DNA of 64,000 bases, taken from positions 41,619 to 105,618 of IMG/VR virus record IMGVR_UViG_3300035698_010625; one strand, written 5' to 3'. Numbering within the stretch: position 1 is the first letter of the stretch; every line of letters starts with the position of its first letter. The DNA is from a virus. The notes under the pieces were generated by a model. The model searched no databases. It saw only the letters and a program-made list of their open reading frames with translations, and was not told the origin of the DNA. Made by a program: the position numbers and the translations under genes. This document shows, one piece after another, positions 5,414 to 41,813 of the stretch.

Positions 5414-5662
5414 TTAGAAGAGAGGGCATTCCAGTGCAACCGCCCGGACAACGCCTTGCCAGCTGTGTTTGGAGACGAGTGCAGAGACTGCTTCATCTGC
5501 TGCTTTGTCATCCCCGTAAAGCCAGAGTCGATTAGCGTCAAGACAAGCTTCGACCGCTTCATGATTATCGCTGATACCCTCCATGCAGTCGGGGCCGATG
5601 CAGTTCCAAGTAGTGTACACTGCAGTTTTGATAGCGTCAGAGATTTCAATGTCCATGTTCAC
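5414..5662 (-). CDS. Hypothetical early protein (GC-rich codons)
   Basis: ORF in the leftward early run. Confidence 0.6.
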   Translation of the reverse strand: MNMDIEISDAIKTAVYTTWNCIGPDCMEGISDNHEAVEACLDANRLWLYGDDKAADEAVSALVSKHSWQGVVRAVALECPLF

Positions 5663-5856
5663 CAGCCCAGTTGTTTTTCGAGAAGTTCAATCCGCGCAGC
5701 AGCTACGGTGGCGCGTTCATTGAGGTCGAACGCTTTCTTTTCATCGCCAGCAGTGATAGCGTCATCACGGTCCAAGATGAGAATGTCGTACCCAGCGTTT
5801 TCACTGAGAAGTTGGAGGCCGTTGCGGACGTCGCGCATCAATTGAGTGTCTGGCAT
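5659..5856 (-). CDS. Hypothetical early protein
   Basis: ATG at 5856 (MPDTQL) with an AAGG RBS. Confidence 0.55.
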   Translation of the reverse strand: MPDTQLMRDVRNGLQLLSENAGYDILILDRDDAITAGDEKKAFDLNERATVAAARIELLEKQLGW

Positions 5857-5860
5857 GTTA

Positions 5861-6049
5861 TTAAACCTTCTTGGATTTGTAGATGAAAGGCAGTTCGCGT
5901 TTTGGGGTGATGCGACAGTTGTGCACTTTCCATTTTCCAGAGCGACAAGCTTCGATGCGGCGTTTGCGCGAGATTTTCTTCGCTGGGAGGATTTCAATGA
6001 CTCCGCCTGCAGCGTAGAAGTGAGCCATTTCGCGTTCAGTAGCGTTCAT
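5861..6049 (-). CDS. Small basic early protein
   Basis: MNATEREMAHFYAAGGVIEILPAKK; first gene left of the repeat array. Confidence 0.55.
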   Translation of the reverse strand: MNATEREMAHFYAAGGVIEILPAKKISRKRRIEACRSGKWKVHNCRITPKRELPFIYKSKKV

Positions 6050-6244
6050 AAGAGTAACCAAGTCAGAGGGAGAGAGCGCCCCGAGTGTAATTTTTCTCGG
6101 CCCAAGCTTTCATTTTAGTGACCACTTGGTCCTGGCGCCGTGTCATCGTGTAAGGCGCAGATGGCATGTGGTTGGCCGTTTTTGCTGTTGGAGTTGATAA
6201 GTCCATTCTATATGGTTGAGCCAAATGTTACACATATAAAACCT

Positions 6245-9258: not shown

Positions 9259-9333
9259 GTGGCCGTGGCCGAATGGTTTAGGTGCCTGACTGTGAATCAG
9301 ATTATATGGGTTCAATTCCCATCGGTCACCCCA
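9259..9333 (+). tRNA. tRNA-His(GTG)
   Basis: Cloverleaf, loop CT-GTG-AA, C73, CCA; no encoded G-1. Confidence 0.93.
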
Positions 9334-9348
9334 ATGAAAATTTACAAT

Positions 9349-9425
9349 GCCCTTCTAGCTAAACTGGACAAGGCCCTCGGCTACGAACTGAGAGATTGAA
9401 GGTTCGAATCCTTCGGAGGGTACCA
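9349..9425 (+). tRNA. tRNA-Arg(ACG)
   Basis: Cloverleaf, CT-ACG-AA, TTCGAAT, CCA. Confidence 0.93.
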
Positions 9426-9441
9426 TATTAAGGAGTTTGTT

Positions 9442-9600
9442 ATGAGTAAATGGGATTACCCCAAGACTAAGAAGAATTCTGATGGAGCAAAACTGACTGC
9501 TGCTGAATTACGCGCACAAAGAAAAGCTCATCGGAAAGCAATTAAAGCTACTGCTCATACTGAACTCAAGACGAAGAAAAATAAAGATCAAATTAAGTAA
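9442..9600 (+). CDS. Small Lys-rich protein
   Basis: AAGGAG RBS; MSKWDYPKTKK... Confidence 0.55.
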   Translation: MSKWDYPKTKKNSDGAKLTAAELRAQRKAHRKAIKATAHTELKTKKNKDQIK

Positions 9601-9605
9601 CAATT

Positions 9606-9682
9606 GGGTGCTTCGTATAACGGCACATTATGTCGGACTCTTAATCCGAACGATCTGGGTTCGAATCCCAGGGTACCCACCA
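9606..9682 (+). tRNA. tRNA-Lys(CTT)
   Basis: TCGGA-CT-CTT-AA-TCCGA, CCA. Confidence 0.92.
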
Positions 9683-9697
9683 AACAAAGGTATTATT

Positions 9698-9970
9698 ATG
9701 GAATTCACTGCTGAACTTGCTAAACAAATAGTTGAAGAAGATCATGATGATTGGGAACAAGTTAATGAAGAATCTTCTAATTCTTCCCGATGGCATACTC
9801 ATTACAGTGGTGTTTATAAAAATACATTAACTGGAAAATACTATGAATTTATTTGGCAGCGTGGTTCTACTGAATATCAAGATGAAGGTACAGAATTTTA
9901 CACTGACCCAATAGAAGCTGTAGAAGTTATTGAAAAATCAGTAACTGTAATGCGCTGGGTTGCTGTTTAG
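9698..9970 (+). CDS. Conserved phage hypothetical protein
   Basis: SRWHTHYSGVYK...G.TEYQD motif; true ATG lies after the tRNA. Confidence 0.7.
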   Translation: MEFTAELAKQIVEEDHDDWEQVNEESSNSSRWHTHYSGVYKNTLTGKYYEFIWQRGSTEYQDEGTEFYTDPIEAVEVIEKSVTVMRWVAV

Positions 9971-10065
9971 TTTGTACGCGGACGGTACTGCTTGGCAGTC
10001 CACTTGAATATCTTGTGGGTCACTGCACAGTCCGGGTTGAAGAACCTTAAACTTAACTAACAATT

Positions 10066-10141
10066 GCCGGTGAAGCAATCAGGGTATTGCAACTCGTTGT
10101 CTGCGAGAGATAGGAGGGTTCGAGTCCCTTCATCGGCGCCA
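10066..10141 (+). tRNA. tRNA-Asp(GTC)
   Basis: Loop TT-GTC-TG, G73, CCA. Confidence 0.85.
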
Positions 10142-10147
10142 ATTTTT

Positions 10148-10223
10148 GGGGGATTAGCTCATCTGGGAGAGCGTCTGTTTTGCAAGCAGAAGGTGATCGG
10201 TTCGAGTCCGATATCTTCCACCA
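10148..10223 (+). tRNA. tRNA-Ala(TGC)
   Basis: G3:U70 pair, TT-TGC-AA, CCA. Confidence 0.95.
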
Positions 10224-10258
10224 TTTTACTAGAAAGATTCATATACTTTCTAGACATT

Positions 10259-10336
10259 CGTTCGGTAGCTCAGCCTGGTTAGAGCACCCGTCTGATACGC
10301 GGTAGGTCGAAGGTTCAACTCCTTCTCGAACGACCA
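10259..10336 (+). tRNA. tRNA-Ile(GAT)
   Basis: CT-GAT-AC loop, canonical D and T arms, CCA. Confidence 0.88.
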
Positions 10337-10341
10337 ATTTA

Positions 10342-10446
10342 AAGAGCTTAGGTGTAGAAACGAGAATGCACCTTTAAGAAAACCTTGTTGCTGGGCTACC
10401 CGATAAATCATCTTCTCAGATGTATGCAACACAAACTTCAGCTCTT
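10342..10446 (+). ncRNA. Orphan structured RNA
   Basis: Closing stem AAGAGCT/AGCTCTT enclosing AGGTGTA/TGCACCT and branched TGTTGC/GCAACA stems. Confidence 0.5.
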
Positions 10447-10450
10447 CCTT

Positions 10451-10581
10451 TTGTACTGTCATGCGGGGTCGCCTCGGTGACGAAAGTGCTAGCGGGTACC
10501 GTCTTAGTAACGGTTTCACGAGGTGCAGGACCTCGGGGGTTTTCAGTTTCCACAATCGGGCTAGCTAAAACTGAAGTACAA
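10451..10581 (+). ncRNA. Orphan structured RNA with twin GCTAGC loops
   Basis: TTGTAC/GTACAA closing stem, long CGGGGTC-GCCTC-GTGA rod, TTCAGTTT/AAACTGAA hairpin. Confidence 0.55.
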
Positions 10582-10593
10582 TTTTATTACAAT

Positions 10594-10670
10594 GCTACGT
10601 TCGTCTAATGGACTAGGACTCTGGGTTTTCACTTCAGATAATATCGGTTCGAATCCGATACGTAGTACCA
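10594..10670 (+). tRNA. tRNA-Glu(TTC)
   Basis: Glu-type D arm TCGTCTAA...AGGAC, TT-TTC-AC, CCA. Confidence 0.9.
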
Positions 10671-10678
10671 ATTTCAAT

Positions 10679-10754
10679 TCCTAGTTAGTATTCTTGGTGA
10701 GCACGGGTGACTGTTAATCACTTCAGGTAGGTTCGAATCCTACACTAGGAGCCA
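10679..10754 (+). tRNA. tRNA-Asn(GTT)
   Basis: GGTGA-CT-GTT-AA-TCACT, G73, CCA. Confidence 0.92.
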
Positions 10755-10761
10755 AATCAAT

Positions 10762-10836
10762 GAGAGTTTAGTTCAAGTTAGAACATCTGGCGCAATAGTC
10801 AGAAGATGCTGGTATCGAATCCAGTCCCTTTCACCG
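10762..10836 (+). ncRNA. tRNA-like RNA with 8-nt non-canonical anticodon loop
   Basis: D arm GTTC/GAAC, TCTGG-CGCAATAG-TCAGA, T-like arm GCTGG/CCAGT; weak acceptor, ends ACCG. Confidence 0.6.
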
Positions 10837-10842
10837 AATAAT

Positions 10843-10928
10843 GGATGTGATGTACCGGTGGTGGTATAGCGGGCTGTAACCCCGTGGCTCTTATGGGCGA
10901 GTAGGTTCGACTCCTTCCACATCCACCA
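10843..10928 (+). tRNA. tRNA-Tyr(GTA)
   Basis: CT-GTA-AC, long variable arm, CCA. Confidence 0.9.
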
Positions 10929-11016
10929 ATTTCGTTGGCAGTAAGGTCACGCATTGAGATTGACCTCCTAGTAATAGGTACCTGATGGGTAAATTAAAAA
11001 GTGCGATTTCAAATTC

Positions 11017-11094
11017 CGGTGATTAGCTCAGCCTGGTTAGAGCTCTCCGTTTGGGGCGGAGTTGCCAGAGGTTCGAATCCTCTATCACCGACCA
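11017..11094 (+). tRNA. tRNA-Pro(TGG)
   Basis: CTCCG-TT-TGG-GG-CGGAG, C1-G72, CCA. Confidence 0.95.
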
Positions 11095-11187
11095 ATAACT
11101 AATTATCTAATGTGCTTGCCGGCATATGCGGATGATTGCACGAACTTCTATTGATAACAAGCGGTAACTTGTAATCATAAGATGAGT

Positions 11188-11251
11188 TAATTAGTAGTTT
11201 AACGGTAGATCGCCTGGCTGGAAGATGCGGGTTCGAATCCTGTCTAATTAC
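11188..11251 (+). ncRNA. tRNA-like RNA with vestigial anticodon arm
   Basis: TAATTAG/CTAATTA acceptor, D loop AACGGT, GCGGG-TTCGAAT-CCTGT; about 10 nt in place of the anticodon arm; no CCA. Confidence 0.55.
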
Positions 11252-11267
11252 TTTCGTGATTTACAAC

Positions 11268-11342
11268 AGTTCCTTAACTCAGAGGCAGAGTATCGCTTTT
11301 ACACAGCGAAGGTCGAGATTTCGAAATTCTCAGGAACTACCA
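11268..11342 (+). tRNA. tRNA-Val(TAC)
   Basis: TCGCT-TT-TAC-AC-AGCGA, CCA. Confidence 0.9.
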
Positions 11343-11409
11343 GTAACTAATCAACAGCTCGATGGGAGTCTTGCTATTTGATTGCACAGCGTCTTACTCC
11401 CATAAGATT

Positions 11410-11478
11410 TATTGATAGTGTAATGGATGCACACTGGGGTTTAAACCTGGAAGTACGGTTCGATTCCGTGATTAATAA
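11410..11478 (+). ncRNA. Degenerate tRNA-like RNA with TTA at the anticodon position
   Basis: TATTGAT/ATTAATA acceptor, GTGT/GCAC D arm, CTGGG-GTTTAAA-CCTGG, TTCGATT T loop; no CCA. Confidence 0.5.
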
Positions 11479-11530
11479 CTTGGGCTGTGATTTACAAATC
11501 GCTTGAGCAACTGCTCGCGTACAATACAAT

Positions 11531-11618
11531 GGGAGTGTGGTGGAATTGGTATACACATTGGTCTTAGAAACCAACGACTGTAATGGTCACGCAGGTTCGA
11601 CTCCTGTCACTCCTACCA
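11531..11618 (+). tRNA. tRNA-Leu(TAG)
   Basis: Leu D arm GGTGGAATTGGTATACAC, CT-TAG-AA, variable arm, CCA. Confidence 0.95.
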
Positions 11619-11624
11619 ATCAAT

Positions 11625-11692
11625 GTTCGATTAGCATAATGCAATGCGGCAAGTACTTGTAGAAGAAAGCTCGAATCTTTCATCGAACTCCA
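11625..11692 (+). ncRNA. Anticodon-less tRNA mimic (68 nt, CCA end)
   Basis: GTTCGAT/ATCGAAC acceptor, GCAT/ATGC D arm, GCAAG-TA-CTTGT, GAAAG-CTCGAAT-CTTTC, T-CCA. Confidence 0.75.
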
Positions 11693-11701
11693 AATTTAAA
11701 C

Positions 11702-11775
11702 GCTCAATTAGTTCAATGGTAGAACAACGGCCCGGTAAGTCGTTAACGTAAGTTCGATTCTTACATTGAGCACCA
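11702..11775 (+). tRNA. tRNA-Thr(GGT), C33 variant
   Basis: ACGGC-CC-GGT-AA-GTCGT, CCA. Confidence 0.85.
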
Positions 11776-11781
11776 ATTAAT

Positions 11782-11858
11782 GCCCGGTTCGTCTAAATAT
11801 TAGGACCTCTGCCATATTTGAGCAGAAAATAAAAGTGAGATTCTTTTACCGGACACCA
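11782..11858 (+). ncRNA. tRNA mimic with 9-nt anticodon loop
   Basis: Glu-like D arm, TCTGC-CATATTTGA-GCAGA, AAAAG-TGAGATT-CTTTT, A-CCA. Confidence 0.7.
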
Positions 11859-11864
11859 AACAAT

Positions 11865-11937
11865 GCCAAGGTCGTCTAATAATCTAAGACCCTCTCGTGA
11901 TAGAGAGAAATGAGGTGTAAATCCCCCCGAGGCACCA
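11865..11937 (+). ncRNA. tRNA mimic with 6-nt anticodon loop
   Basis: Glu-like D arm, CTCTC-GTGATA-GAGAG, acceptor GCCAAGG/CCGAGGC, A-CCA. Confidence 0.65.
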
Positions 11938-11943
11938 AACAAT

Positions 11944-12019
11944 GCTGGAGTCGTCTAACGGCTAGGACTTTACATTCTCAGTGTAAACAATGCGAGTTCG
12001 AATCTCGTCTCCAGTACCA
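11944..12019 (+). tRNA. tRNA-Glu(CTC)
   Basis: TTACA-TT-CTC-AG-TGTAA, CCA. Confidence 0.9.
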
Positions 12020-12024
12020 AATCT

Positions 12025-12111
12025 GGATTGATCCGCTGGGTAGGCCGGCAGCACGGTTTGAACCCGTGGGTGACCGAAAGGTTAGGGGTTCGACTCCTCA
12101 TCTCTCCGCCA
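12025..12111 (+). tRNA. tRNA-Ser(TGA)
   Basis: CACGG-TT-TGA-AC-CCGTG, GAAA-capped variable arm, G73, CCA; acceptor mismatches at pairs 4-5. Confidence 0.82.
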
Positions 12112-12118
12112 ATTTTAT

Positions 12119-12194
12119 CCTTCGCTCGTCTAATGTTAAGACACCAAACCGTGGAGGTTTGGGGATAGAGGTTTGATTCCTTTGCTTAGGACCA
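12119..12194 (+). ncRNA. tRNA mimic with extended anticodon stem
   Basis: CCAAACC-GTGGA-GGTTTGG arm, AGAGG-TTTGATT-CCTTT, acceptor CCTTCGC/GCTTAGG, A-CCA. Confidence 0.68.
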
Positions 12195-12202
12195 ATTTTA
12201 AT

Positions 12203-12253
12203 GACTACTTCCTATACGTAGGTTAATAACTGAAAAGTTAAGAGTGGTCACCA
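12203..12253 (+). ncRNA. 51-nt mini-tRNA-like RNA
   Basis: 7-bp GACTACT/AGTGGTC + A + CCA; two tetraloop hairpins CCTA-TACG-TAGG and TAACT-GAAA-AGTTA. Confidence 0.6.
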
Positions 12254-12347
12254 AGTTATCCCACACTCATCGAATGGTACGGTAAACGTTAAGAAACGTT
12301 TCGTGGGGAGTTTATCAGAAAGCCGTGACAGATAGACAACTAACAAT

Positions 12348-12421
12348 AGCTGCATAGCATAGTGGTAATGCGGGGGTCTTTGAAACCTCTCAGTAAGGTT
12401 CGATTCCTTATGCGGCTGCCA
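12348..12421 (+). tRNA. tRNA-Gln(TTG)
   Basis: GGGGT-CT-TTG-AA-ACCTC, G73, CCA. Confidence 0.92.
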
Positions 12422-12425
12422 ATTT

Positions 12426-12497
12426 TGATGTGGATATAATCTATCCCTTGTGCGGGTGCCCCTAGTAATAGGTCAAGGCAGCAAACTGCTCACATCA
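12426..12497 (+). ncRNA. Orphan four-way-junction RNA
   Basis: TGATGTG/CACATCA closing stem; arms GATA/TATC, CTTG/CAAG (containing CCTA-GTAA-TAGG) and GCAG-CAAA-CTGC. Confidence 0.45.
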
Positions 12498-12507
12498 GAT
12501 TTAATAT

Positions 12508-12594
12508 GGAAGATTAACTAGACAGGGTTCTAGAGCTGTTTGCTAAACAGATGGTACCGCAAGGTATGAGTTTCGAATACTCAATTTTCCGCCA
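12508..12594 (+). tRNA. tRNA-Ser(GCT)
   Basis: TT-GCT-AA loop, GCAA-capped variable arm, G73, CCA. Confidence 0.88.
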
Positions 12595-12623
12595 AACATA
12601 AAGAAAAATTAAGTATTAACAAT

Positions 12624-12698
12624 GGGACTCAGGTGTAACTGGGTGCACGGCGGACTTTTAATCCGTAAGGACAGGGTTCAAGCCCTGGGGTCCCACCA
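12624..12698 (+). tRNA. tRNA-Lys(TTT)
   Basis: GCGGA-CT-TTT-AA-TCCGT, CCA. Confidence 0.92.
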
Positions 12699-12785
12699 AA
12701 TGTAAATGGAAATGCTTCGGCATTGTAAAACTCACCGAAAGGTTTCCACCCAAGTGTGGATATAAAGAAGTTCCGATTAGTCAAT

Positions 12786-12859
12786 GCGTCTAAGTACAAG
12801 GTGTATCCTCGGGTTTCCAACCCGTAGTGAGTGGGTTTCGATTACCCCTAGTCGCTCCA
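12786..12859 (+). tRNA. tRNA-Gly(TCC)
   Basis: CGGG-TT-TCC-AA-CCCG, GCG acceptor, U73, CCA; irregular D and T arms. Confidence 0.75.
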
Positions 12860-12864
12860 ACAAT

Positions 12865-12937
12865 AGTTATCTAGCTCAACTGGCAGAGCACTAGCTTCAT
12901 ACGTTAGGGAATCTCGGTTCAAATCCGAGGGTAACTA
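12865..12937 (+). tRNA. tRNA-Met/Ile2(CAT), elongator type
   Basis: CTAGC-TT-CAT-AC-GTTAG; CCA not encoded (ends CAA). Confidence 0.85.
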
Positions 12938-12943
12938 CAATCT

Positions 12944-12951
12944 TATAAATA
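12944..12951 (+). promoter_or_regulatory. T4-type late promoter
   Basis: TATAAATA upstream of the ORF at 12978. Confidence 0.7.
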
Positions 12952-12977
12952 CTCTTTTAATAAACGAGTATCAGAAA

Positions 12978-13232
12978 ATGCAAACTTTTAAAAGTTTCAC
13001 CGAAGGAAATGTCGTTAAATTTCCTAAGAAGAAAAAACAAACCCACGATGAAATTACTGGATTGCCAATTGATTCACGTCTTCCAGATACCCCAGACGAA
13101 TGGATGGTTGTATCAAAGGATGAGAGTGTAGCATATAGCACTTCACCAACTCGTCAAGAAGCACAGAAAAAACTTAAGACGTATATGATGAAGACAGGTA
13201 AGAGAGATCTTAAAGTCATCAAATTTGGCTAA
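12978..13232 (+). CDS. Putative internal head protein (capsid-targeting-like leader)
   Basis: MQTFKSFTE N-terminus; late promoter upstream. Confidence 0.6.
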   Translation: MQTFKSFTEGNVVKFPKKKKQTHDEITGLPIDSRLPDTPDEWMVVSKDESVAYSTSPTRQEAQKKLKTYMMKTGKRDLKVIKFG

Positions 13233-13238
13233 GATAAT

Positions 13239-13270
13239 CCTCGCCAAGAAGGTCTAAACCATATATAATG
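13239..13270 (+). promoter_or_regulatory. Sigma70-type promoter, copy 1
   Basis: TCGCCA-N17-TATAAT; 30/32 identical to 19805-19836. Confidence 0.7.
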
Positions 13271-13280
13271 ATATAACAAA

Positions 13281-13352
13281 GCGGGTATAGCTCAGTGGTA
13301 GAGCGGAACGTTGCCAACGTCCAGGTCGAGAGTTCGAATCTCTCTACCCGCT
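13281..13352 (+). tRNA. tRNA-Gly(GCC)
   Basis: GCGGGTA acceptor, TT-GCC-AA, U73; CCA not encoded. Confidence 0.92.
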
Positions 13353-13562
13353 CTAATTTAGGATTATATGATGAATTTGGGACTAACAAGTGATTGTGAG
13401 GCAGAAGCATATTTTGATAGCGCTGATACTTACATCAAACAATACAACGCTACTTATATGTTTGAGAATAGTTCTGCGAGAGTCCGAACTATCATTGCTG
13501 AATATTTTGCTAATCTAGATAATAAAACTATTTGGCTTTGGAAAACTAAGAGTGATTGAATC

Positions 13563-13781
13563 ATGCGCCTTATCATTTCGCGGACTAACAATGACAGCAC
13601 TTTGGACTTCGAAGTTCATGATGCACGTTGGGTTACTTTTAGTGATAAAATGAAAGCATTTGCTTGGACTCGTCCGGGTAATAAGCTTGGAATTTACTTC
13701 TCCGAGGAATATGTCAATCGCCGCTTTGTGAACATCTTTTGCATTAGCGCGCTTGAGAACATGCACTGGCAGGTTAAGTGA
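13563..13781 (+). CDS. Hypothetical protein
   Basis: ORF in a small coding block within the tRNA array. Confidence 0.5.
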   Translation: MRLIISRTNNDSTLDFEVHDARWVTFSDKMKAFAWTRPGNKLGIYFSEEYVNRRFVNIFCISALENMHWQVK

Positions 13782-13791
13782 GGATTACATT

Positions 13792-13983
13792 ATGTGGATT
13801 CGATTTGAAGAGAAACAACCCAAACAAGATAAAGACCTTTATTACTTCTTCGATGTAGTAGGTGTTCACTCAGGGCGCTATTACGGCGGTGATACATTTC
13901 AAGGCCGAAGAGGTTTTCTCAATGGTGACGTTACTCATTGGCAATATGATAAAGGGCAGGGAAAACCTGCTGAACCAAAATGA
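13792..13983 (+). CDS. DUF551-like small protein
   Basis: MWIRFEEKQP...VTHW.....P motif. Confidence 0.6.
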   Translation: MWIRFEEKQPKQDKDLYYFFDVVGVHSGRYYGGDTFQGRRGFLNGDVTHWQYDKGQGKPAEPK

Positions 13984-13988
13984 ATAAT

Positions 13989-14065
13989 GCAAGAGTGGCT
14001 CGACTGGTGAAGGCCGGCGTCTTATATGCGTCTATATGTGGGTTCGAATCCCGCCTCTTGTACCA
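13989..14065 (+). tRNA. tRNA-Ile(TAT)
   Basis: GGCGT-CT-TAT-AT-GCGTC, A73, CCA. Confidence 0.88.
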
Positions 14066-14073
14066 AAATATTT

Positions 14074-14150
14074 CAGGGTATAAGTCAGTCTGGTAGACAC
14101 CCCGGTTTGGAACTGGGAAGCCGTTGGTTCGAATCCAACTACCCTGACCA
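14074..14150 (+). tRNA. tRNA-Pro(TGG), second copy with A37
   Basis: CCCGG-TT-TGG-AA-CTGGG, C1-G72, CCA. Confidence 0.9.
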
Positions 14151-14167
14151 TTTAAAGAGAGTACATT

Positions 14168-14428
14168 ATGCTTACATTCAATATTAAAGATTTCTTTTGT
14201 TGGCATAGTATTCAAAAAGAAGAGTCATTTGAAGCTTTTCATGCAAGAGCAGAAGCACTGCATGAAACTTATCAACATTGGACTCCTGTAAATGAAATTG
14301 AAAGAACAAATAGAGCAGTATGTTTTGTATCTTTTATTAACAATCACCCAAAAATCGTAAATCCATATACTGGTAAAACAAAAAAACAATTTTCTTTAAC
14401 GGAATATCCTATATCTACCTTGTCTTAA
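14168..14428 (+). CDS. Hypothetical protein
   Basis: ORF with a GAGAG RBS. Confidence 0.5.
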   Translation: MLTFNIKDFFCWHSIQKEESFEAFHARAEALHETYQHWTPVNEIERTNRAVCFVSFINNHPKIVNPYTGKTKKQFSLTEYPISTLS

Positions 14429-14451
14429 AGGTTGTATAATGATTATTCAAT

Positions 14452-14527
14452 ACACGGTAAGCAATTATGGTTAATGCGCTGGCTTGAAGTCCCAGATAAC
14501 TAAGTTCGATTCTTAGACCGTGTACCA
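14452..14527 (+). tRNA. tRNA-Phe(GAA)
   Basis: CTGG-C-TT-GAA-GT-C-CCAG, CCA. Confidence 0.83.
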
Positions 14528-14550
14528 ATTTATTATGGAGTGACTGTGAT

Positions 14551-15252
14551 ATGTTTGCTGATTTTTGCACTGATCATTTCTCGACGAGTAACAATGCACA
14601 TTACAGAAATCCGCGAACTGTTGACCAAAATGTAATTGCTAATGAGACAATGCTATTTAGCGCATCTCCAGAATTTGCTACTGCAAATGGTGGCCCACTT
14701 ACTGCTTACTTTCTCTCCAAGCTTTTTGATGGTGGATTTGAAAGCATTGATACTCGAGGAATGCATTGGGTCATTGATACTCGCTCGCACATGCTGATGC
14801 CAGGTCAATTTCCTTCTATTCCAGGTTGGCATTGTGATGCTTGGGAGCGAGATCCAAAGACACAACAACCACTTTTATGGCAGCACCCACATGGTACCGC
14901 TATGCATTTTGTAATGACACTTGGTACTAATGATGATGGTGTATCACTTACAAAATTCATACTTCCTTTTGGTGTGCCGATTCGTGTATCTTACGATCCA
15001 TCCAAAGTTTGGGGTTCTGTAAACGAATCAATTGAACACCAAATTGAAGATCTCGTTATATCACCAGATAGAATTATTAGTGCGCCTTCAGGGACACTCA
15101 TTTCGTTTGGACAAAACATATTACATACGGCTAGTGTAGCTACCAGTAAAGGCTGGCGCTTCTTTGCTCGTATAAGTTTAATGACAAATCCACCACTCAA
15201 CAAAATTCGAAAACAGGTACAAGTTTACGCTGATTCAAATGTTGGTTGGTAA
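14551..15252 (+). CDS. 2OG-Fe(II) oxygenase-like protein
   Basis: PGWHCD (HxD), distal LH and R.F.R motifs. Confidence 0.7.
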   Translation: MFADFCTDHFSTSNNAHYRNPRTVDQNVIANETMLFSASPEFATANGGPLTAYFLSKLFDGGFESIDTRGMHWVIDTRSHMLMPGQFPSIPGWHCDAWERDPKTQQPLLWQHPHGTAMHFVMTLGTNDDGVSLTKFILPFGVPIRVSYDPSKVWGSVNESIEHQIEDLVISPDRIISAPSGTLISFGQNILHTASVATSKGWRFFARISLMTNPPLNKIRKQVQVYADSNVGW

Positions 15253-15338
15253 ATGAATTAAGGGAAACGTTGGTTCGAGTCCAACTCCTGCGCTGGTGCA
15301 AAGGATCGTAATTGATGGCCAAGACACCCTTACGTTAC
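15249..15338 (+). ncRNA. Circularly permuted tRNA-like RNA (YrlA/Y-RNA-like architecture)
   Basis: Order T arm (GTTGG-TTCGAGT-CCAAC), loop-closed acceptor, D-like arm, all closed by TAAGGG/CCCTTA. Confidence 0.6.
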
Positions 15339-15341
15339 AAT

Positions 15342-15415
15342 GTTGATATGGCAGAATGGTTATGCCGTGGCTTGCAAACCCACTTACTCTGGTTCGATTC
15401 CGGATATCAACTCCA
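15342..15415 (+). tRNA. tRNA-Cys(GCA)
   Basis: TT-GCA-AA, U73, CCA. Confidence 0.92.
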
Positions 15416-15667
15416 AGATAAGGCTTTAGCCGCAGCAGAGTAGTCAGGCATGACATAAAAGGTCGAAATGAAAAAGTTTAGCCGGCTCGACCAGCTTTAT
15501 TTCTGAGTTCAAAGGTGGTCCTGAGCACGATGGATATGCACCAATTGTAAAAAATGTCTGTGATGGTGATTATACCGAATTCTCAGTTTGTTTGGAATGT
15601 GGTACTCTGAAAGGTACTTTCCCGGTTGATGATCCTGTTTGGAATGATGAAGAAGAAGATTAACAAT

Positions 15668-15737
15668 GCGCCGCGCTCTGGGTAAGCAGTATGGTTTCCA
15701 ATGCCTCGCGTGTGGAGTTCGATTCTCTGGCGGCGTG
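15668..15737 (+). ncRNA. Degenerate tRNA-Gly(TCC)-like RNA
   Basis: GCGCCGC/GCGGCGT acceptor, TGGAG-TTCGATT-CTCTG, TT-TCC-AA in a poorly paired arm; no CCA. Confidence 0.5.
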
Positions 15738-15762
15738 CACCTGTAATAGATTAAAGAATAAT

Positions 15763-15838
15763 AAGAGTATAGTATAATGGCTCATTACCCCGGGCTCTGA
15801 ACTCGGTAATCTAGGTTCGAATCCTAGTACTCTTGCCA
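15763..15838 (+). tRNA. tRNA-Gln(CTG)
   Basis: CCGGG-CT-CTG-AA-CTCGG, G73, CCA. Confidence 0.93.
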
Positions 15839-15845
15839 AATATAC

Positions 15846-15920
15846 GCCTGCTAAGCATTAATGGTGATGCACTGGTTTTGTAATCCAGAGAAGAGGGATC
15901 GTTACCTTCAGTCGGCACCA
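15846..15920 (+). tRNA. tRNA-Thr(TGT)
   Basis: TT-TGT-AA, CCA; atypical T loop ATCGTTA. Confidence 0.83.
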
Positions 15921-15923
15921 AAT

Positions 15924-15997
15924 CGCGAGATGTTGAAATGGCATCCTGCTGGGCTCATAACCCTTCGTTGGCGGTTCAACTCCGTCTTTCGCTACCA
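15924..15997 (+). tRNA. Initiator tRNA-fMet(CAT)
   Basis: C1:U72 mismatch, GGG/CCC in the anticodon stem, CT-CAT-AA, CCA. Confidence 0.87.
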
Positions 15998-16110
15998 ACT
16001 TTGTGAGATCGTCAAGTGTAATTATGTTAAAGCCCGAGATGATGACATTACAAAATGTACGAATCGGTTAATCTTTAACTAGCACAAGGGACATCTCACA
16101 AACTTTTTTA

Positions 16111-16251
16111 TGTTGTAACTGCAAGGATAATGCAGGGTGGTTGGAGAGCTTGTGAGGGTGTACAACCTTTTATCCACAGGTATAAAGTTAGCTTTAACAA
16201 ATCGAGGCGCTTTATAAATCTCTAGTGAAGTTCGATTCTTCATTACAACAC
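16111..16251 (+). ncRNA. tRNA-like RNA with ~85-nt branched domain replacing the anticodon arm
   Basis: TGTTGTAA/TTACAACA acceptor, TGCA-AGGATAA-TGCA arm, TGAAG-TTCGATT-CTTCA T arm. Confidence 0.62.
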
Positions 16252-16258
16252 TTTCAAT

Positions 16259-16346
16259 GGGAGTATGGTGGAATTGGTATACACAGCAGACTTAAAATCT
16301 GCCGCCTGTAATGGGCTCGGGGGTTCGAATCCCTCTACTCCTACCA
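16259..16346 (+). tRNA. tRNA-Leu(TAA)
   Basis: GCAGA-CT-TAA-AA-TCTGC, Leu D arm, CCA. Confidence 0.95.
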
Positions 16347-16786
16347 AATTAAGGTAAATATGATGCAGGAAACAAGCACTAAAACTATAGCAGATAAAGA
16401 AGCATTGATTCTGTCTGCTGGTGAATGTTATCCAGATACATCTAGTTTTATACGAGATGAAGTTGTGAAAGACATTAATTTTAAGCTAGTTGATAAGATG
16501 TGGGGCAAATAACGAGTGTTGCTCATGCTCCAACCTTCATATACAATGGTGAATGTAAACCTTGTGTAAGTAGGTTGTACCGTAGCTATTTGAGATACAC
16601 TTATATAACTGCTGCACACATTAATGCACTGGTGTATGACATGGTAGTGGAATTAGATGATTTACTTATAGATGCTTCTGAATTTCACCCATATATGATG
16701 GCGATACCACAATTAGCTGAAGAAGAATATATTGAATTTAATCGAATTGCATTCAAACTTCGATTTGCATTTTAAAGATTAACAAT

Positions 16787-16856
16787 GCCCCGGGTGTTGG
16801 ATACACAGCAGAGGTTTCTACCCTCAGCCTTCTGGGTTCGACTCCTAGTCGGGGTA
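16787..16856 (+). tRNA. tRNA-Arg(TCT) with shortened D arm
   Basis: GAGG-TT-TCT-AC-CCTC, GCCCCGG/TCGGGGT acceptor, canonical T arm. Confidence 0.72.
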
Positions 16857-16874
16857 CACCATTTAAGGTTCATT

Positions 16875-17153
16875 ATGAAATATCTTCTTGAGTTGTATTG
16901 GATGTGGAGGGACCGCCAAAGAGCAGAAGCTGAACTCGATAAATTCATAGCTGTTAAAAAGTGGGATGCTAGCATTCGTTGGAATAATGACAAATCGGTT
17001 GAAAACATTCTTTATATTGGTCTTGAAAATGGCCGTGGTGAACGTAAAATACAAATTCATGATTATGGATTAACCCGTACTTATTCTAAGTCGAAGGCCC
17101 ATCTCATTTATACAAAGTACGTTTTGCCATGGCAGCATAAAATAAATGAATAA
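16875..17153 (+). CDS. Hypothetical protein
   Basis: ATG after the tRNA with an AAGG RBS. Confidence 0.55.
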   Translation: MKYLLELYWMWRDRQRAEAELDKFIAVKKWDASIRWNNDKSVENILYIGLENGRGERKIQIHDYGLTRTYSKSKAHLIYTKYVLPWQHKINE

Positions 17154-17259
17154 TAACCTTTATCTTAAGGTCCTATATTGATATAATATACTTATTGGAA
17201 CGCACCTATTTTGCTGTCAACGCAATGTTGGCTTTTTTGTAATTAAACGGGGATACATT

Positions 17260-18084
17260 ATGATTACGCGAAACAAATTGGCTGTTGCTATTCTTGCTGC
17301 AGTTTCCATTACTACCGCAGCACACGCATCTGAAGTTACTACAATCACCGCTGGCTCCAAGGGCGGTGCATACGCTACTTATGGCAACAATCTTGCAACT
17401 ATGCTCACCCAGAATGATTGGAAGAGTAAGGTTATTCGCAGTAAGGGTTCAATTCAGAATATTGCCCGTCTTGTAGATGGCTCAGCACAAATTGGTTTCA
17501 CCCAGGGCGATGCTTTGCAGCTCTCAAAGGCTGGTGGTAAGATTGATATTCTTGGAGCACTTGGAATGGAATGTGCTTTCATTGTTTACAGTAAGAAGGG
17601 TAAGGTCACTGACGAAGATCATCTTCAGAATGAGGGTGTGAAAATTGCTGTTGGTAAGAAAGGTACTGGTTCACAAGCAACGTGGTCTTACATGGTTCAG
17701 CTAGAACCTGCATACGGTAATGCATCTGCACAGTATACTGGCGGAGCTCGCGCACTTGGCGCACTCAAAGCAGGCACTGTTGACGCTGTTCTCTTTGTCA
17801 CCGATCCCACTAATCTGAGTCATAAGCTTATTCAAGCAGTAAATGGTGATCCAGACCTCGATTTTCTAGACGTTGATGACAGTGACTTGAATGATGATCT
17901 ACCTAATGGCACGCCTGTCTATGAATTCAAAGAAGTTGACACTGAAACGGGTGCTTTCGCGGATGACGTAGATACTATCTGTACGCCTTTGCTAGTAATT
18001 GCTAGTGCAGATGCTGACGAAGACATGCTTGATGATGCTGCAGGAATTATGCTAAGCAATCGCAATGCGGTGCTTGGTAAGTAA
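17260..18084 (+). CDS. TAXI-family TRAP transporter solute-binding protein
   Basis: Signal peptide (AHA|S), G.KGGAY, SKGSIQNI..L..G.AQIGFTQGD, G..GTGS, ALKAGTVDA motifs. Confidence 0.85.
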   Translation: MITRNKLAVAILAAVSITTAAHASEVTTITAGSKGGAYATYGNNLATMLTQNDWKSKVIRSKGSIQNIARLVDGSAQIGFTQGDALQLSKAGGKIDILGALGMECAFIVYSKKGKVTDEDHLQNEGVKIAVGKKGTGSQATWSYMVQLEPAYGNASAQYTGGARALGALKAGTVDAVLFVTDPTNLSHKLIQAVNGDPDLDFLDVDDSDLNDDLPNGTPVYEFKEVDTETGAFADDVDTICTPLLVIASADADEDMLDDAAGIMLSNRNAVLGK

Positions 18085-18107
18085 CAATGCAAAAGATAGT
18101 CGTTCCC

Positions 18108-18305
18108 AAGTTAGTACTTAATCGCTCTACGGAGAGGAAAGTCGGGACAAGCGGCATGATCGTGTGGGAGGAGTTAACTCCGCTTTACCACCGTGACATA
18201 GCTTGCAACACAAACAGGATTAGACAAATTGTGCATCAATGATATCCGGGTTGTGGCCAATAGACGAATGATAGCATAGAACAGGATCCCGCTTACGGAT
18301 TACTT
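18108..18305 (+). ncRNA. rnpB: Miniature RNase P RNA (catalytic domain only)
   Basis: CR-I GAGGAAAGTCGGG (18134) pairs with CR-V ACAGGATCCCGCTTAC (18281) to form P4 with the bulged U; CR-IV-like AGACGAATGAT. Confidence 0.85.
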
Positions 18306-18594
18306 ACTACTTACAAGGAGCAAATGATGAGCAAGGTATACCCTCACTCAAGCACTAAGCAACGCGAACGATACGTGAAACAAAACGCTATTAAAGGCGA
18401 ACGCTCTATCGGGCAAACTGATGCTTCAGTAGGCTGGTATGGACTTACAGTAAATTGGAAAGCTATTGTGCGTGGTGCACCGTGTTACATTACAACTAAC
18501 TAAAAGGAGCAAGATATGCGCTTGATGAATTTAGAGCACCTCCTTAAATTGTGATTTTTGGTAAAACACTAATTCACACTTAAGGAAACATCTA

Positions 18595-18972
18595 ATGAAA
18601 ATCACTTATCTCAAAATTAAAGTAAAGTCACTAGCAGCAGAGTCACGCATGATCCGCCAAGAGGAGTTGAAACTCAAACGTCGATACCAGGCGATTAAAC
18701 TGTTGGACAATCAGTATGACACTGCAGCAGAAGAGGGAGACATAAGGTCTACTCGTTTAGGTCTTTATGAACACCGTACAGATGATGTACGTCGAGAGTC
18801 GCGTGTAGCTAATATTGCTTACGGTCTACTTCGAGGAAGAGAGTATAGCAAAATTGAGCGAGGAGTTCGGGAGTTTAATCAACCGAAATGGACACGCGTT
18901 ACAAAGTTGATTGAGAAGTATTCAAACAGTGAGGAGCAGAAGGTTAAAGCTTTTCAACTGATTGAGCAGTAA
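18595..18972 (+). CDS. Conserved phage hypothetical protein
   Basis: LKIKVKSLAAESRMIR...R.ANIAYGLLRGREYSKIE motif common in large phages. Confidence 0.75.
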   Translation: MKITYLKIKVKSLAAESRMIRQEELKLKRRYQAIKLLDNQYDTAAEEGDIRSTRLGLYEHRTDDVRRESRVANIAYGLLRGREYSKIERGVREFNQPKWTRVTKLIEKYSNSEEQKVKAFQLIEQ

Positions 18973-18983
18973 ATATCATGACG

Positions 18984-19006
18984 GAGCGCTTCGGCGCTCT
19001 CGTTTT
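18984..19006 (+). terminator. UUCG hairpin terminator
   Basis: GAGCGC-TTCG-GCGCTC followed by T residues. Confidence 0.75.
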
Positions 19007-19075
19007 GGCTGACACGGTGACTACCTGGCTTTCAATCCAAAGGAGTTTAGGGTTCGATTCCCTTATCAGCCACCA
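19007..19075 (+). ncRNA. tRNA-like RNA with reduced D arm (TTC in loop)
   Basis: GGCTGA/TCAGCC acceptor, AGGG-TTCGATT-CCCT, A-CCA. Confidence 0.6.
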
Positions 19076-19220
19076 AATTTTAGGAGAGGCATTATGAGTA
19101 TATTTGCTTGGATTGTTTTTCCATTTTTATTCCCCGTGGTTGTCGCAATGTTTTGGGTGCTGACACATGTGGATCCATACACTGGTAAGGTTCATTGGAA
19201 TCTTACGTGGTAAACGATAT

Positions 19221-19510
19221 CATGTAGTAGTTTAAATGTTGGCATTATGAGGAAAGGTGAAGATTATTTGAAAGTAAAATTAAGTTAGTAGCAATTCTGT
19301 AGTGGTGATGTAACGAGACGTGTAGGTAAAAACGTGAGCCAAATGAAAGATTGGACAGGCATCATCATCGAGGGCGTTGCGAATTCTTCTTTTGAACCCT
19401 TTAATTAGTAACCTTTACTTACGTGTCACACGGAAAAACGCTAGGAACCCCCCCGCTTACGCGTCTCTTAATCCTGGATATCCACGGTTCAATACCGGGC
19501 TACATGGCCA
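19221..19510 (+). ncRNA. 290-nt ornate tRNA-like RNA with 194-nt D-loop insertion
   Basis: CATGTAG/CTACATG-G-CCA acceptor, split D arm, 27-nt anticodon loop, T arm, 13-bp long-range pairing 19315-19327/19455-19467. Confidence 0.75.
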
Positions 19511-19534
19511 ATTTCTTGAAACGGAGTTTATAAT

Positions 19535-19780
19535 ATGAATGATTATTTTAATGCGTTTATTATGATTTTGGTTATAGCGATAGTAACAAATGTTGGTTGG
19601 ATTATTAATTATGATGATCTTAAAACACTTCATGAAAAGGCGTTAAGTATTCATAAGATTGAAGTCATGCAACATAGACAAGCTATTTGTCGTAGTGCAA
19701 CAGCTGAACACGCAACTAATACTGCTACACTCTTCGAAGCAATCAATAAGCTCAATTCTGCTGCTAAGGCTGCAGAATAA
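19535..19780 (+). CDS. Small membrane-anchored protein
   Basis: N-terminal TM helix; GGAG RBS. Confidence 0.6.
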   Translation: MNDYFNAFIMILVIAIVTNVGWIINYDDLKTLHEKALSIHKIEVMQHRQAICRSATAEHATNTATLFEAINKLNSAAKAAE

Positions 19781-19804
19781 TTTACTTTAATGGCATAAGA
19801 TATA

Positions 19805-19836
19805 CCTTGCCAAGAAGGTCGAAACCATATATAATG
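19805..19836 (+). promoter_or_regulatory. Sigma70-type promoter, copy 2 (upstream of the large RNA)
   Basis: TTGCCA-N17-TATAAT. Confidence 0.75.
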
Positions 19837-19844
19837 GTACTATA

Positions 19845-20730
19845 ATCTGAACACAAACTAATAGATTGGGTCGCGTGGGATCCATAAGATAAGTAGCAGT
19901 AATGTTACGAAAGGCTATCTCATTTACGGATAGCGCCACTTTTATGAAGGTGGACATCTACGCAAGCCAAGCTCTTTACGGGTACCTCCGGGTGCTCTGG
20001 AAGATAAGTTGTGACCGACAAACACATCCAGGCCAACGGTGAGGATGATAGATTCCGCAAGAATCTCGGGTCAAGCAAAAGCAACGAACTTCAATGAGCA
20101 AAGGGTAGATTGAAAAGTTAAGCTTGCAGGTAAGGCTTTCAATCAATACGATAGGTGAAAGAAGATACAGCCTTCTGGAATCTAGAAATATTGCTAAGTA
20201 GCTCGCAAGGCGAAAGGTACGAGGTGGGTGGTATTTGGTAACTCAAAGGTTATTGAGCCACAGGCATTCGCTCATCTTAAAATGTAAATATGTAAACGGA
20301 ATAGGGGAATAGGTACACCCGCCCGGCCGCCAAAGCCAGGATCTGTTGGTTCGAATCCAACTTTCGTTATCAACTTTGTATTGATAACAAATCTTAAATG
20401 CAAAGACGAATGCCACCGTGAAGTGGAAATTGCTTAATCCTCAAACCCATAGGGTAATTGAGGTTCAGGATGCTCGCAAGGCGGATTGAATTAGTTGGAG
20501 TCACAGGTAAATTCTTAGCGGAGTTACACAGCCCAGCAAGGCTGACCGGTCGATGAATGCTGAAAAGCTCGCGGATAGAGGAATCGCTACCTCTTTAAAC
20601 AAAGCAGCAATGGTTGATTACTATGCCGCTCTTCGGAGGGTAAAGTGGAAAAGAGAAGAACCTAGCGGATCGCACCGTGTGGATAATTTCTCGAAGGATC
20701 AACTGCATATGAGTATATTCTCAACTCATC
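19845..20730 (+). ncRNA. GOLLD-like large ncRNA
   Basis: About 890 nt with no credible ORF; many GCAA/GTAA/TTCG tetraloop stems; motifs recalled from GOLLD (GGTCGCG near the 5' end, GCTCGCAAGGC twice, AAATGCAAAGACG, CTTAAT, GCCCAGCAAGGCTG, GTGGAAAAG, terminal TATTCTCA hairpin); lies in a phage tRNA cluster. Confidence 0.75.
20295..20369 (+). ncRNA. tRNA-like element (CCA/Trp-like loop) embedded in the GOLLD-like RNA
   Basis: AACGGAA/TTTCGTT acceptor, GGG/CCC D stem, CCCGGC-CGCCAAA-GCCAGG, GTTGG-TTCGAAT-CCAAC. Confidence 0.7.
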
Positions 20731-20939
20731 TGTTTACTTATGGCAGGTTGTACGTTCTCTGCCTTAAACGTACTGGCTTTCTGGGGAGGCTCAGATAACC
20801 GGGTAGTTCACCTAACTACCTGCCATAAGTAAATAGGAAGATAATATGAACATTGATAAAGTTGAACTTCAGAAGATCTTTCTTGAAGTTTTTACTAAAC
20901 ACCCAGAAGCTGCAAAGATTTTTCTAAAGGGTAATAACT

Positions 20940-21239
20940 ATGAGCACGACCCCTACAAGAAGTTTGAGAGTTGAAAGATCATATACAAATAAGTTTAACC
21001 AAGTAATTGAAGTTGGTGATGAAGTAGTATTTGTTGCAACTTCTTGGGGTGGTACTGATATTCGCCAAGGTGTTTATCTTGGATATTACCCACGCACTGG
21101 TTGGGATGGTCGCCCTGCACTTCATGCTGCTAGTGTATCATACATTGGTAAGGAGTGGGATGGAAGAAAATGGATTGACGATGCAGTACTTCATTCTGTT
21201 CTTGAACTCGGTCGTGTTTTCAAAATTGAGAAAGTATAA
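20940..21239 (+). CDS. Hypothetical protein (paralog of 21239)
   Basis: N.FNQVIEVGDEV...R.GVY.GY...G.VFKI. Confidence 0.7.
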   Translation: MSTTPTRSLRVERSYTNKFNQVIEVGDEVVFVATSWGGTDIRQGVYLGYYPRTGWDGRPALHAASVSYIGKEWDGRKWIDDAVLHSVLELGRVFKIEKV

Positions 21240-21556
21240 TGGCATTCCTCGAAGAGTCATTTGTCAATGAAATCGGGCAACGTATTGAAGTTGGGGATCG
21301 TGTAATAGCGGTCGCACATGGATACAATCTCAACTGCCGTCCTGGTATCTATGAAGGTTATCACAGTCATGGCGAACAATATTATACTATCTCACAACTT
21401 GTAGAAACTGCAGATGGTGGGTTTAAGAAAGATGAACGTGGTAATTATGTGAGATATACGAAAAAACATTATTACATTCGAATGTTACATCGCGTATTGT
21501 ACGATGAAGGTTGGCGTGGAATACTTCAGAATGGTAACATTTTCAAAATTGCATAA
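21239..21556 (+). CDS. Hypothetical protein (paralog of 20940)
   Basis: NEIGQRIEVGDRV...RPGIYEGY...GNIFKI. Confidence 0.7.
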   Translation: MAFLEESFVNEIGQRIEVGDRVIAVAHGYNLNCRPGIYEGYHSHGEQYYTISQLVETADGGFKKDERGNYVRYTKKHYYIRMLHRVLYDEGWRGILQNGNIFKIA

Positions 21557-21560
21557 CAAT

Positions 21561-21650
21561 GGCATTGTGGTGGAACTAAGGTATACACAGCGTCTTCAAA
21601 AGCCGCCGGTCTTTGAGACTATGAGGGTTCGACTCCCTCCGATGCTACCA
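21561..21650 (+). tRNA. tRNA-Leu(CAA)
   Basis: Leu D arm, TT-CAA-AA, variable arm, CCA. Confidence 0.9.
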
Positions 21651-41420: not shown

Positions 41421-41813
41421 ATGTTTGACACTCTTGATGATACCAATTTTGACTTATATGCTGCAAAATATTACGACAACCCAAGCAATGCTGGAGAACG
41501 AGAATTCGAAGATGATCTTAGTAAGATACGTTATCTGAAAAGACTCTTCGCTCGTTACAAAGAACGAGATGAATTAAATGAAAGGTTGATACTTAATCAC
41601 CTGACTATTCTTTATAATGTGTTCGAAGCAGAAGCTTGTACAAGGATGCTTGCTTACAGATTAAAAGAGTTTCTGCCTTGTTTAAAGCCGTTTCTCATAT
41701 ATCTTTCATATTGGCCAGATACGATAAAACCAATTGGTATACATAAAGAGGTTGTTGATTGTACTGGCATTTCAATTGATGATTTTGTAATACATAAACT
41801 TAGGAAACTATAA
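41421..41813 (+). CDS. Conserved T4-like hypothetical protein
   Basis: NF.LYAAKYYDNP...EF.DDL...ERLILNH. Confidence 0.8.
   Translation: MFDTLDDTNFDLYAAKYYDNPSNAGEREFEDDLSKIRYLKRLFARYKERDELNERLILNHLTILYNVFEAEACTRMLAYRLKEFLPCLKPFLIYLSYWPDTIKPIGIHKEVVDCTGISIDDFVIHKLRKL

Follow-up and report, generated by a model that had tools for sequence, protein, structure and literature searches.

A predicted half-sized RNase P RNA of bacterial type A ancestry in the tRNA-rich region of an uncultured T4-like phage

Locus

The stretch of DNA analysed here (hereafter the window) comprises 64,000 nucleotides, positions 41,619 to 105,618 of IMG/VR record IMGVR_UViG_3300035698_010625, and all coordinates below are those of the window unless a related locus (L002, L003 and so on) is named. 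It contains a tRNA-rich region at 9259-21650 (+) with 29 tRNA genes called by ARAGORN, all on the same strand as a candidate RNase P RNA gene at 18108-18312 (+), together with a GOLLD RNA. The source record of 105,618 bases (59% complete according to CheckV) belongs to an uncultured, T4-like phage that carries genes for a family B DNA polymerase (PolB), a DnaB-type helicase and a ribonucleotide reductase (RNR); the closest match of its PolB is the polymerase of T4-like cyanophages, at 42% identity. The public runs containing the sequence are DNA runs labelled salt-lake metagenomes, with no RNA runs among them, and DNA contigs from four salt-lake runs are identical to it over 18014-18175 and 18203-18450, with zero variants.

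The RNA gene occupies a 239-nt gap between the open reading frames at 17260-18084 and 18324-18503. We found no promoter directly upstream of it and no terminator at the gene; the nearest promoter-like and terminator-like sites lie at 17237-17264 and 18983-19000, and counts of such sites in the region are not above those in shuffled sequence. Without a promoter-like site directly upstream, the RNA would need to be excised from a longer transcript. The nearest tRNAs lie 1.3 kb upstream and 2.0 kb downstream, farther than in most of the relatives described below.

The tRNAs themselves look ordinary at the elbow, as all 29 called by ARAGORN have TTCRA in the T-loop and GG in the region of the D-loop, and 24 of the 29 genes encode CCA. 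The tRNA at 11410-11479 has the anticodon UUA, which reads the UAA stop codon, and does not encode CCA. Two tRNA-like elements are unusual: one at 15846-15917 has a non-canonical T-loop (GAUCGUUAC), the sole odd T-loop among the elements inspected, and one at 11188-11251 is short, at 64 nt. The GOLLD RNA (20221-20727 (+), 151.6 bits) lies 1.9 kb 3' of the RNase P RNA and embeds a tRNA-Trp at 20295-20369. The same pairing occurs at locus L008, in which a GOLLD RNA (5642-6103) lies 1.5 kb downstream of the RNase P RNA.

A search for an RnpA gene (PF00825, Ribonuclease_P) gave none in the 105.6-kb record, which CheckV rates as 59% complete. Downstream of the RNA, the open reading frame at 18595-18972 (+) encodes a basic protein of 125 aa (pI 9.8) that belongs to no Pfam or PHROG family and is confidently predicted to form an all-helical long hairpin (pLDDT 91.6) with no significant PDB match. 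Four other loci encode homologs of this protein, in L096 close to the RNase P RNA and in L037, L055 and L081 at a distance of a few kilobases. RnpA has an alpha/beta fold, and given the all-helical prediction we rejected the 125-aa protein as an RnpA-like cofactor.

Identification and anatomy of the RNA

A scan with the Rfam RNase P clan models, the check that the original prediction for this locus had proposed, gave the bacterial class A model RF00010 as the best match. RF00010 aligns globally (model positions 1-367) to 18110-18311 (+) with 38.3 bits and an E value of 2.1e-10 in the 701 nt searched, or 7.6e-12 over the whole 105.6-kb record. The score is below the curated gathering cut-off of 100 bits, which is why a default Rfam scan passes over this RNA. 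We also built a covariance model, R1, from 30 relatives with the window sequence left out; it finds 18112-18305 (model positions 1-192) with 139.3 bits and an E value of 4e-36, a score that falls within the 116-182 bits of its own seed members. Nothing else in the record matches R1 at E <= 0.01; two further matches in the window score below 10 bits, with E values of 0.23 and 0.49. The family model spans 18112-18305, and the outer limits of the gene, 18108 and 18312, were set by a P1 helix specific to the window, consistent with the RF00010 match and the open reading frame list. The minimum-free-energy fold is ordinary (z = 0.41) and thus uninformative, so that support comes from homology and covariation and not from folding energy.

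Judged by its sequence, the element at 18108-18312 (+) is a reduced, ~200-nt phage-borne relative or descendant of bacterial type A RNase P RNA. The original prediction had proposed just such a relative at roughly half the bacterial size, and the RF00010 match, the R1 match and the covariation presented below agree with it. No cultured carrier emerged by sequence similarity: neither the window RNA nor L036, a common member of the family, gave a match when compared by blastn in distant mode with 50,697 GenBank phage records.

The window RNA keeps P1, P3, the P4 pseudoknot with its bulged U, P5, the P6 pseudoknot, P15-P17 and the conserved regions CR-I, CR-IV and CR-V. P18, P8, P9 and P12-P14 are missing and CR-II is unrecognised; in the RF00010 alignment, 140 S-domain positions are reduced to ~52 nt and 23 P18 positions to 1 nt. 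The 5' strand of P1 (18108-18116, AAGU(U)AGUA) has its partner UACUACUU at 18305-18312, while in the register homologous to that of the relatives P1 contains U.U and G.A mismatches. UAAUC at 18119-18123 can serve either as the 5' strand of P2, pairing AUC with GAU at 18270-18272 followed by A.A and U.G, or as an extension of P1. P3 (18125-18134) has the form CUC[UACG]GAG, a 3-bp helix with a UACG (UNCG) tetraloop whose pairs covary in the family. It is followed by CR-I (18135-18146), made up of the J3/4 segment AGGA and the P4 5' strand AAG-U-CGGG (18139-18146) with the bulged U at 18142, and this strand pairs at seven of seven positions with CCCGCUU at 18288-18294.

The P5 5' strand CAAGC (18148-18152) pairs with GCUUG at 18201-18205, and four of its five pairs show two-sided change in the family. 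The 5' strand of the P6 pseudoknot, GCAUGAU (18154-18160), has its partner AUUGUGC at 18228-18234 in the P17 loop, giving 7 bp of which two are G.U. Between the strands of P5 also lies a 33-nt stub of the S-domain (18161-18193), in which GGAG and A-C are invariant in the family. The stub forms a P7/P10-like helix of 2+4 bp (CG/CG and GUGG/CCAC), an internal loop of GA against GCUUUA, and at its tip the 4-bp hairpin GGAG-UUAA-CUCC; by analogy with archaeal type T RNAs, we read it as a probable capped remnant of P7/P10-P11. The P15-P16-P17 arm (18209-18255) consists of P15 CACA/UGUG, P16 GGAU/AUCC and P17 UAGA/UCAA with one A.A, and its L15 sequence GGGU at 18248-18251 is the counterpart of the site that binds the 3' CCA of tRNA.

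CR-IV (18259-18275) comprises the region joining P15 to P2 without P18, in which the CR-IV-like sequence AAUAGACGAAU occupies 18259-18269, and then the P2 3' strand GAUAGC (18270-18275). It leads into J2/4 and CR-V (18276-18295), that is, J2/4 AUAGAACAGGAU, the P4 3' strand CCCGCUU (18288-18294) and A18295. J2/4 carries a G in the window where 29 of 31 aligned sequences have an A. From the end of CR-I (18146) to the AACAG of CR-V (18280) we counted 133 nt, against the ~135 nt claimed previously. The P4 helix AAG-U-CGGG/CCCGCUU with its bulged U, P3 and the CR-IV-like motif were each found where the original prediction had placed them, and the S-domain it had described as apparently absent is indeed mostly lost, but the stub at 18161-18193 remains; it had overlooked this stub, the P6 pseudoknot and the weakness of P2.

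A family of phage-borne relatives

Related loci were collected by pattern scans. Scans of viral contigs with a pattern fixing only parts of CR-I and CR-V at a varied gap yielded 10, 7 and 17 loci, a scan of viral contigs with the P15/L15 motif only yielded 69, and a metagenome scan added 14 further loci, including the nearest relatives of the window (L106, L108 and L109). R1 matches 101 places in L002-L101. The ~100 related loci lie almost all on viral contigs and mostly adjoin same-strand tRNA genes: at 80 of 103 candidate loci a tRNA is no farther than 300 nt away, nearly always in the same orientation, and ten loci that we scanned with Rfam are mostly tRNA arrays. Only two of these ten, the ~200-nt RNAs of L007 and L010, pass the RF00010 gathering cut-off. 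Among 185,579 prokaryote genomes the P15 pattern occurs in only four contigs, all from MAGs, and this near-absence marks the family as essentially viral.

We made an alignment (A2, n = 31) of the window RNA and 30 relatives close to it in length, on a structure of P1, P2, P3, P4, P5, P7, the stub hairpin, P15, P16 and P17. Standard pairs fill 94.9% of cells, a share that drops to 33-41% if the 3' strands are offset by 1-3 columns, and of the 46 base pairs 34 show two-sided change. The covariation score of 0.672 (versus 0.07-0.12) was reached by none of 500 shuffles. P4 covaries at four of its seven pairs, with the types AAG/CUU, AGU/GCU, AGC/GCU, AAC/GUU and AGG/CCU; its 100% pairing is partly imposed because locus selection required P4 complementarity, whereas the variety of pair types is not. 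For the P6 pseudoknot, formed between the segment after P5 and the P17 loop, the family mean of the best helix is 6.8 bp compared with 4.3 bp in shuffled sequence, and 25 distinct helices occur.

The alignment contains 37 family-invariant columns (n = 31). The invariant nucleotides include GAGGAA, the U-C and G of P4, the GGU of L15, the AG..AUG of CR-IV and the ACA of J2/4, all of them positions with known conservation in RNase P. The alignments thus show the family helices as maintained by compensatory changes.

A weak P2 and an extended P1

The window copy differs from its relatives at P2. A clean 6-bp P2 is present in 28 of the 30 other aligned RNAs, with one mismatch in L087 and three in L105, while the window P2 has three Watson-Crick pairs (AUC/GAU) and one U.G, interrupted by U.C and A.A mismatches. 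The R1 alignment deletes four nucleotides of the P2 5' strand and flags the helix as non-canonical. In addition, UAAUC (18119-18123) is perfectly complementary to GAUUA at 18298-18302, just 3' of CR-V, and this pairing extends P1 to 13 bp in a manner that is mutually exclusive with P2. Computed energies that ignore pseudoknots are -30.7 kcal/mol for the extended-P1 fold and -20.7 kcal/mol for the canonical fold, a difference of ~10 kcal/mol. Contigs assembled from two runs agree fully wherever they cover the RNA, so the weak P2 is not an assembly error.

Two readings suggest themselves for the window copy: reduced activity compared with the relatives, or a mode of action like that of archaeal type T RNAs. 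Type T RNAs, found in Thermoproteaceae (Pyrobaculum and its relatives), have a 3-bp P2, a P10 capped by a small loop and in some cases an unusually long P1 (PMC3579882), and they are stated to remain catalytically active (P Finder, PMC7191817), which makes a functional minimal P2 credible.

Relation to known RNase P RNAs

The closest known counterpart is bacterial type A RNase P RNA (rnpB, E. coli M1 RNA), to which the window RNA corresponds in how P1-P5 and P15-P17 are arranged and paired (apart from the weak P2), in both pseudoknots (P4 and P6) and the bulged U, and in CR-I, CR-IV, CR-V and the GGU of L15. The bacterial RNAs, however, are ~350-400 nt long with a P2 of 6-7 bp, a full S-domain (P7-P14, CR-II and CR-III) and P18, whereas the window RNA is ~200 nt long and virus-encoded, with three pairs in P2, a 33-nt stub in place of the S-domain and no P18. 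Type T RNAs are similar in having lost most of the S-domain while keeping the C-domain and the universally conserved positions, but they are of archaeal descent, work with archaeal proteins and are the sole RNase P of the cell. The phage RNA, by contrast, descends from bacterial type A RNAs; it has retained P16-P17-P6 together with a bacterial L15, and a virus carries it as an additional copy. It resembles type T in architecture only, by convergence.

A third comparison is with a laboratory construct, the E. coli C-domain alone (Eco CP RPR), which is active, needs a P6-like pairing and can dispense with P18 once the S-domain and its P8 are removed (PMC5839562). The phage RNA keeps P6 and drops P18, the same pattern as in the biochemistry of Eco CP RPR; it differs in being natural, conserved under selection and equipped with a structured stub, while the construct works at reduced efficiency. 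Full-text searches of a library with few subscription journals turned up no account of an RNase P RNA encoded by a virus, which does not prove that none exists. What sets this RNA apart is that it is viral and half-sized and, in the window copy, has a minimal P2.

Function

We think it probable, and the best explanation of these observations, that the window encodes a reduced type A RNase P RNA that processes phage pre-tRNAs together with the RnpA of the host; its activity and its use of RnpA are what we infer, and the original prediction had likewise proposed reliance on host RnpA. Once transcribed during infection, the RNA would fold into a C-domain core and join the host RnpA protein, and the resulting phage RNA-RnpA enzyme would remove the 5' leaders of the ~30 phage pre-tRNAs, adding RNase P capacity that is independent of host transcription. 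Substrates would be gripped by the acceptor stem, by pairing of their 3' CCA with the GGU of L15 and by contacts between the protein and the leader, and not by S-domain reading of the elbow. The retained CCA-binding GGU of L15 fits well with the CCA encoded in 24 of the 29 tRNA genes. As to the benefit, we can only guess that it might lie in capacity for the burst of ~30 tRNA precursors once host transcription has been shut off. Host rnpB RNA is reported to be stable during T4 infection (PMC9697503), so the need for an extra RNase P RNA is not obvious. A broader reading, to which we give an even chance, is that large tRNA-rich phages carry a miniature RNase P that works as a hybrid with host RnpA and without an elbow check, the window copy having converged on the type T design. 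If so, the window copy would rank among the smallest RNase P RNAs of bacterial descent found in nature.

The weak P2 bears most directly on whether this particular copy still works. The family could be functional and the window copy decaying or inactive, with P2 broken by mutation and the RNA caught in a long-P1 fold in which CR-IV and J2/4 have lost their anchor. Its two P2 mismatches, set against none in 28 of the 30 other aligned sequences, the four nucleotides that R1 deletes from the P2 5' strand, the mismatches of P1 in the homologous register and the computed advantage of ~10 kcal/mol for the long-P1 fold all point that way. Yet the window keeps all 37 family-invariant columns (as it must by their definition), its P3, P4, P5, P7, P15 and P16 are free of mismatches and P6 is kept, and the contigs of two runs, identical over the parts covered, speak against an assembly error. 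Moreover, a 3-bp P2 with a long P1 is normal for type T RNAs, which are stated to be active (PMC7191817), and on balance we consider decay unlikely.

A working enzyme also has to be weighed against other roles for the same conserved RNA. It could act as a decoy, diverting or inhibiting the RNase P of the host during takeover by binding its RnpA, pre-tRNAs or both. The conserved P2/P3, CR-IV, CR-V and P15 include the surfaces touched by protein and substrate in bacterial holoenzymes, no phage RnpA gene was found in the 59%-complete record, and the stability of the host RNase P RNA in T4 infection would make an extra catalytic RNA perhaps superfluous. Against this, the nucleotides that serve chemistry and not binding (the bulged U and the A-rich J3/4 and J2/4) do not vary in the family; the gene also sits with tRNA genes of the same strand, and blocking RNase P would harm a phage with ~30 tRNA genes, which together make this role improbable. 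The S-domain reads the tRNA elbow, and the original prediction had proposed from this that a ribozyme without the S-domain could process elbow-deviant tRNA mimics encoded nearby, which would make loss of the S-domain an adaptation to such substrates. The odd tRNA-like elements at 15846-15917 (T-loop) and 11188-11251 (64 nt) and the GOLLD RNA with its embedded tRNA 1.9 kb downstream would suit such a purpose. It finds little support in the tRNAs at large, as T-loop and D-loop signatures are canonical in 29 of 29 called tRNAs and the same reduced architecture recurs at ~100 phage loci among ordinary tRNAs, and we rate it as quite improbable. For the same reasons, normal tRNAs here and ordinary tRNAs around the relatives, loss of the S-domain seems to be a common feature of RNase P RNAs in phages rather than an adaptation to odd substrates at this locus. 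Finally, one might suspect a fortuitous similarity, or a piece of host rnpB on a mis-assembled contig, from the score below the Rfam cut-off and the unremarkable folding-energy z. Against it stand the E values of 2e-10 (RF00010) and 4e-36 (R1), the covariation of the family, flanks made up of phage genes and phage tRNAs, and a motif nearly absent from 185,579 prokaryote genomes; covariation, the R1 match and the prokaryote-genome scan effectively refute this explanation, which we hold to be extremely improbable.

RNase P RNA is usually regarded as a cellular or organellar housekeeping ribozyme. A virus-encoded RNase P RNA would add a catalytic RNA to the translation-related functions of phages, such as tRNAs and tmRNA, and would make it testable how an RNase P without an S-domain picks its substrates. 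The family amounts to a natural deletion series showing which parts are dispensable (P18 is lost with P8, P6 is retained), in agreement with deletion studies of E. coli M1 RNA, and its members of 150-200 nt offer compact natural scaffolds for structural and engineering work. With two of ten scanned loci above the gathering cut-off, the default Rfam threshold overlooks such genes.

Architectural variants

Spans from CR-I to CR-V range from 112 to ~400 nt in the family. The motif GGAG...CG.UU..AC is conserved across the stubs, and in some members a long insert replaces the stub hairpin. This is the case in L043, L053, L095 and L096, in which the RNA is ~50-150 nt longer and the insert contains a T-arm/acceptor-like piece (GGUUCGAAUCC), ending in CCA in L043, L053 and L095, with no complete tRNA according to ARAGORN. 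The same program found no tRNA inserted within the RNase P RNA of any family member.

At the other extreme, L012-L018 encode ultra-short RNAs of ~150 nt with 112-115 nt between CR-I and CR-V, in which P5 is capped directly and the S-domain remnant is gone. Most of these loci have a TATAAT box ~10-30 nt upstream of P1, and this sequence suggests a promoter of their own. The RNA of L007 (10596-10802) follows a different deletion architecture, as, judged by eye, P8, P9 and P18 are kept while much of P15-P17 is apparently missing, and it still scores 118.5 bits with RF00010; phage RNase P RNAs thus seem to have been reduced by more than one route.

In L004 (7803-8001), inspection by eye places complements of the P2 3' strand (AACCGUC) and of the P3 3' strand (CUGAAA) after CR-V and shows no ordinary P1. 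The locus may represent an RNase P RNA that is circularly permuted in nature, or else a relic. L086 and L091 carry a second, partial copy of P15-P17 (..AACACAAACAG...GGGAAUGG) directly upstream of the full gene, an arrangement that suggests a relic of tandem duplication.
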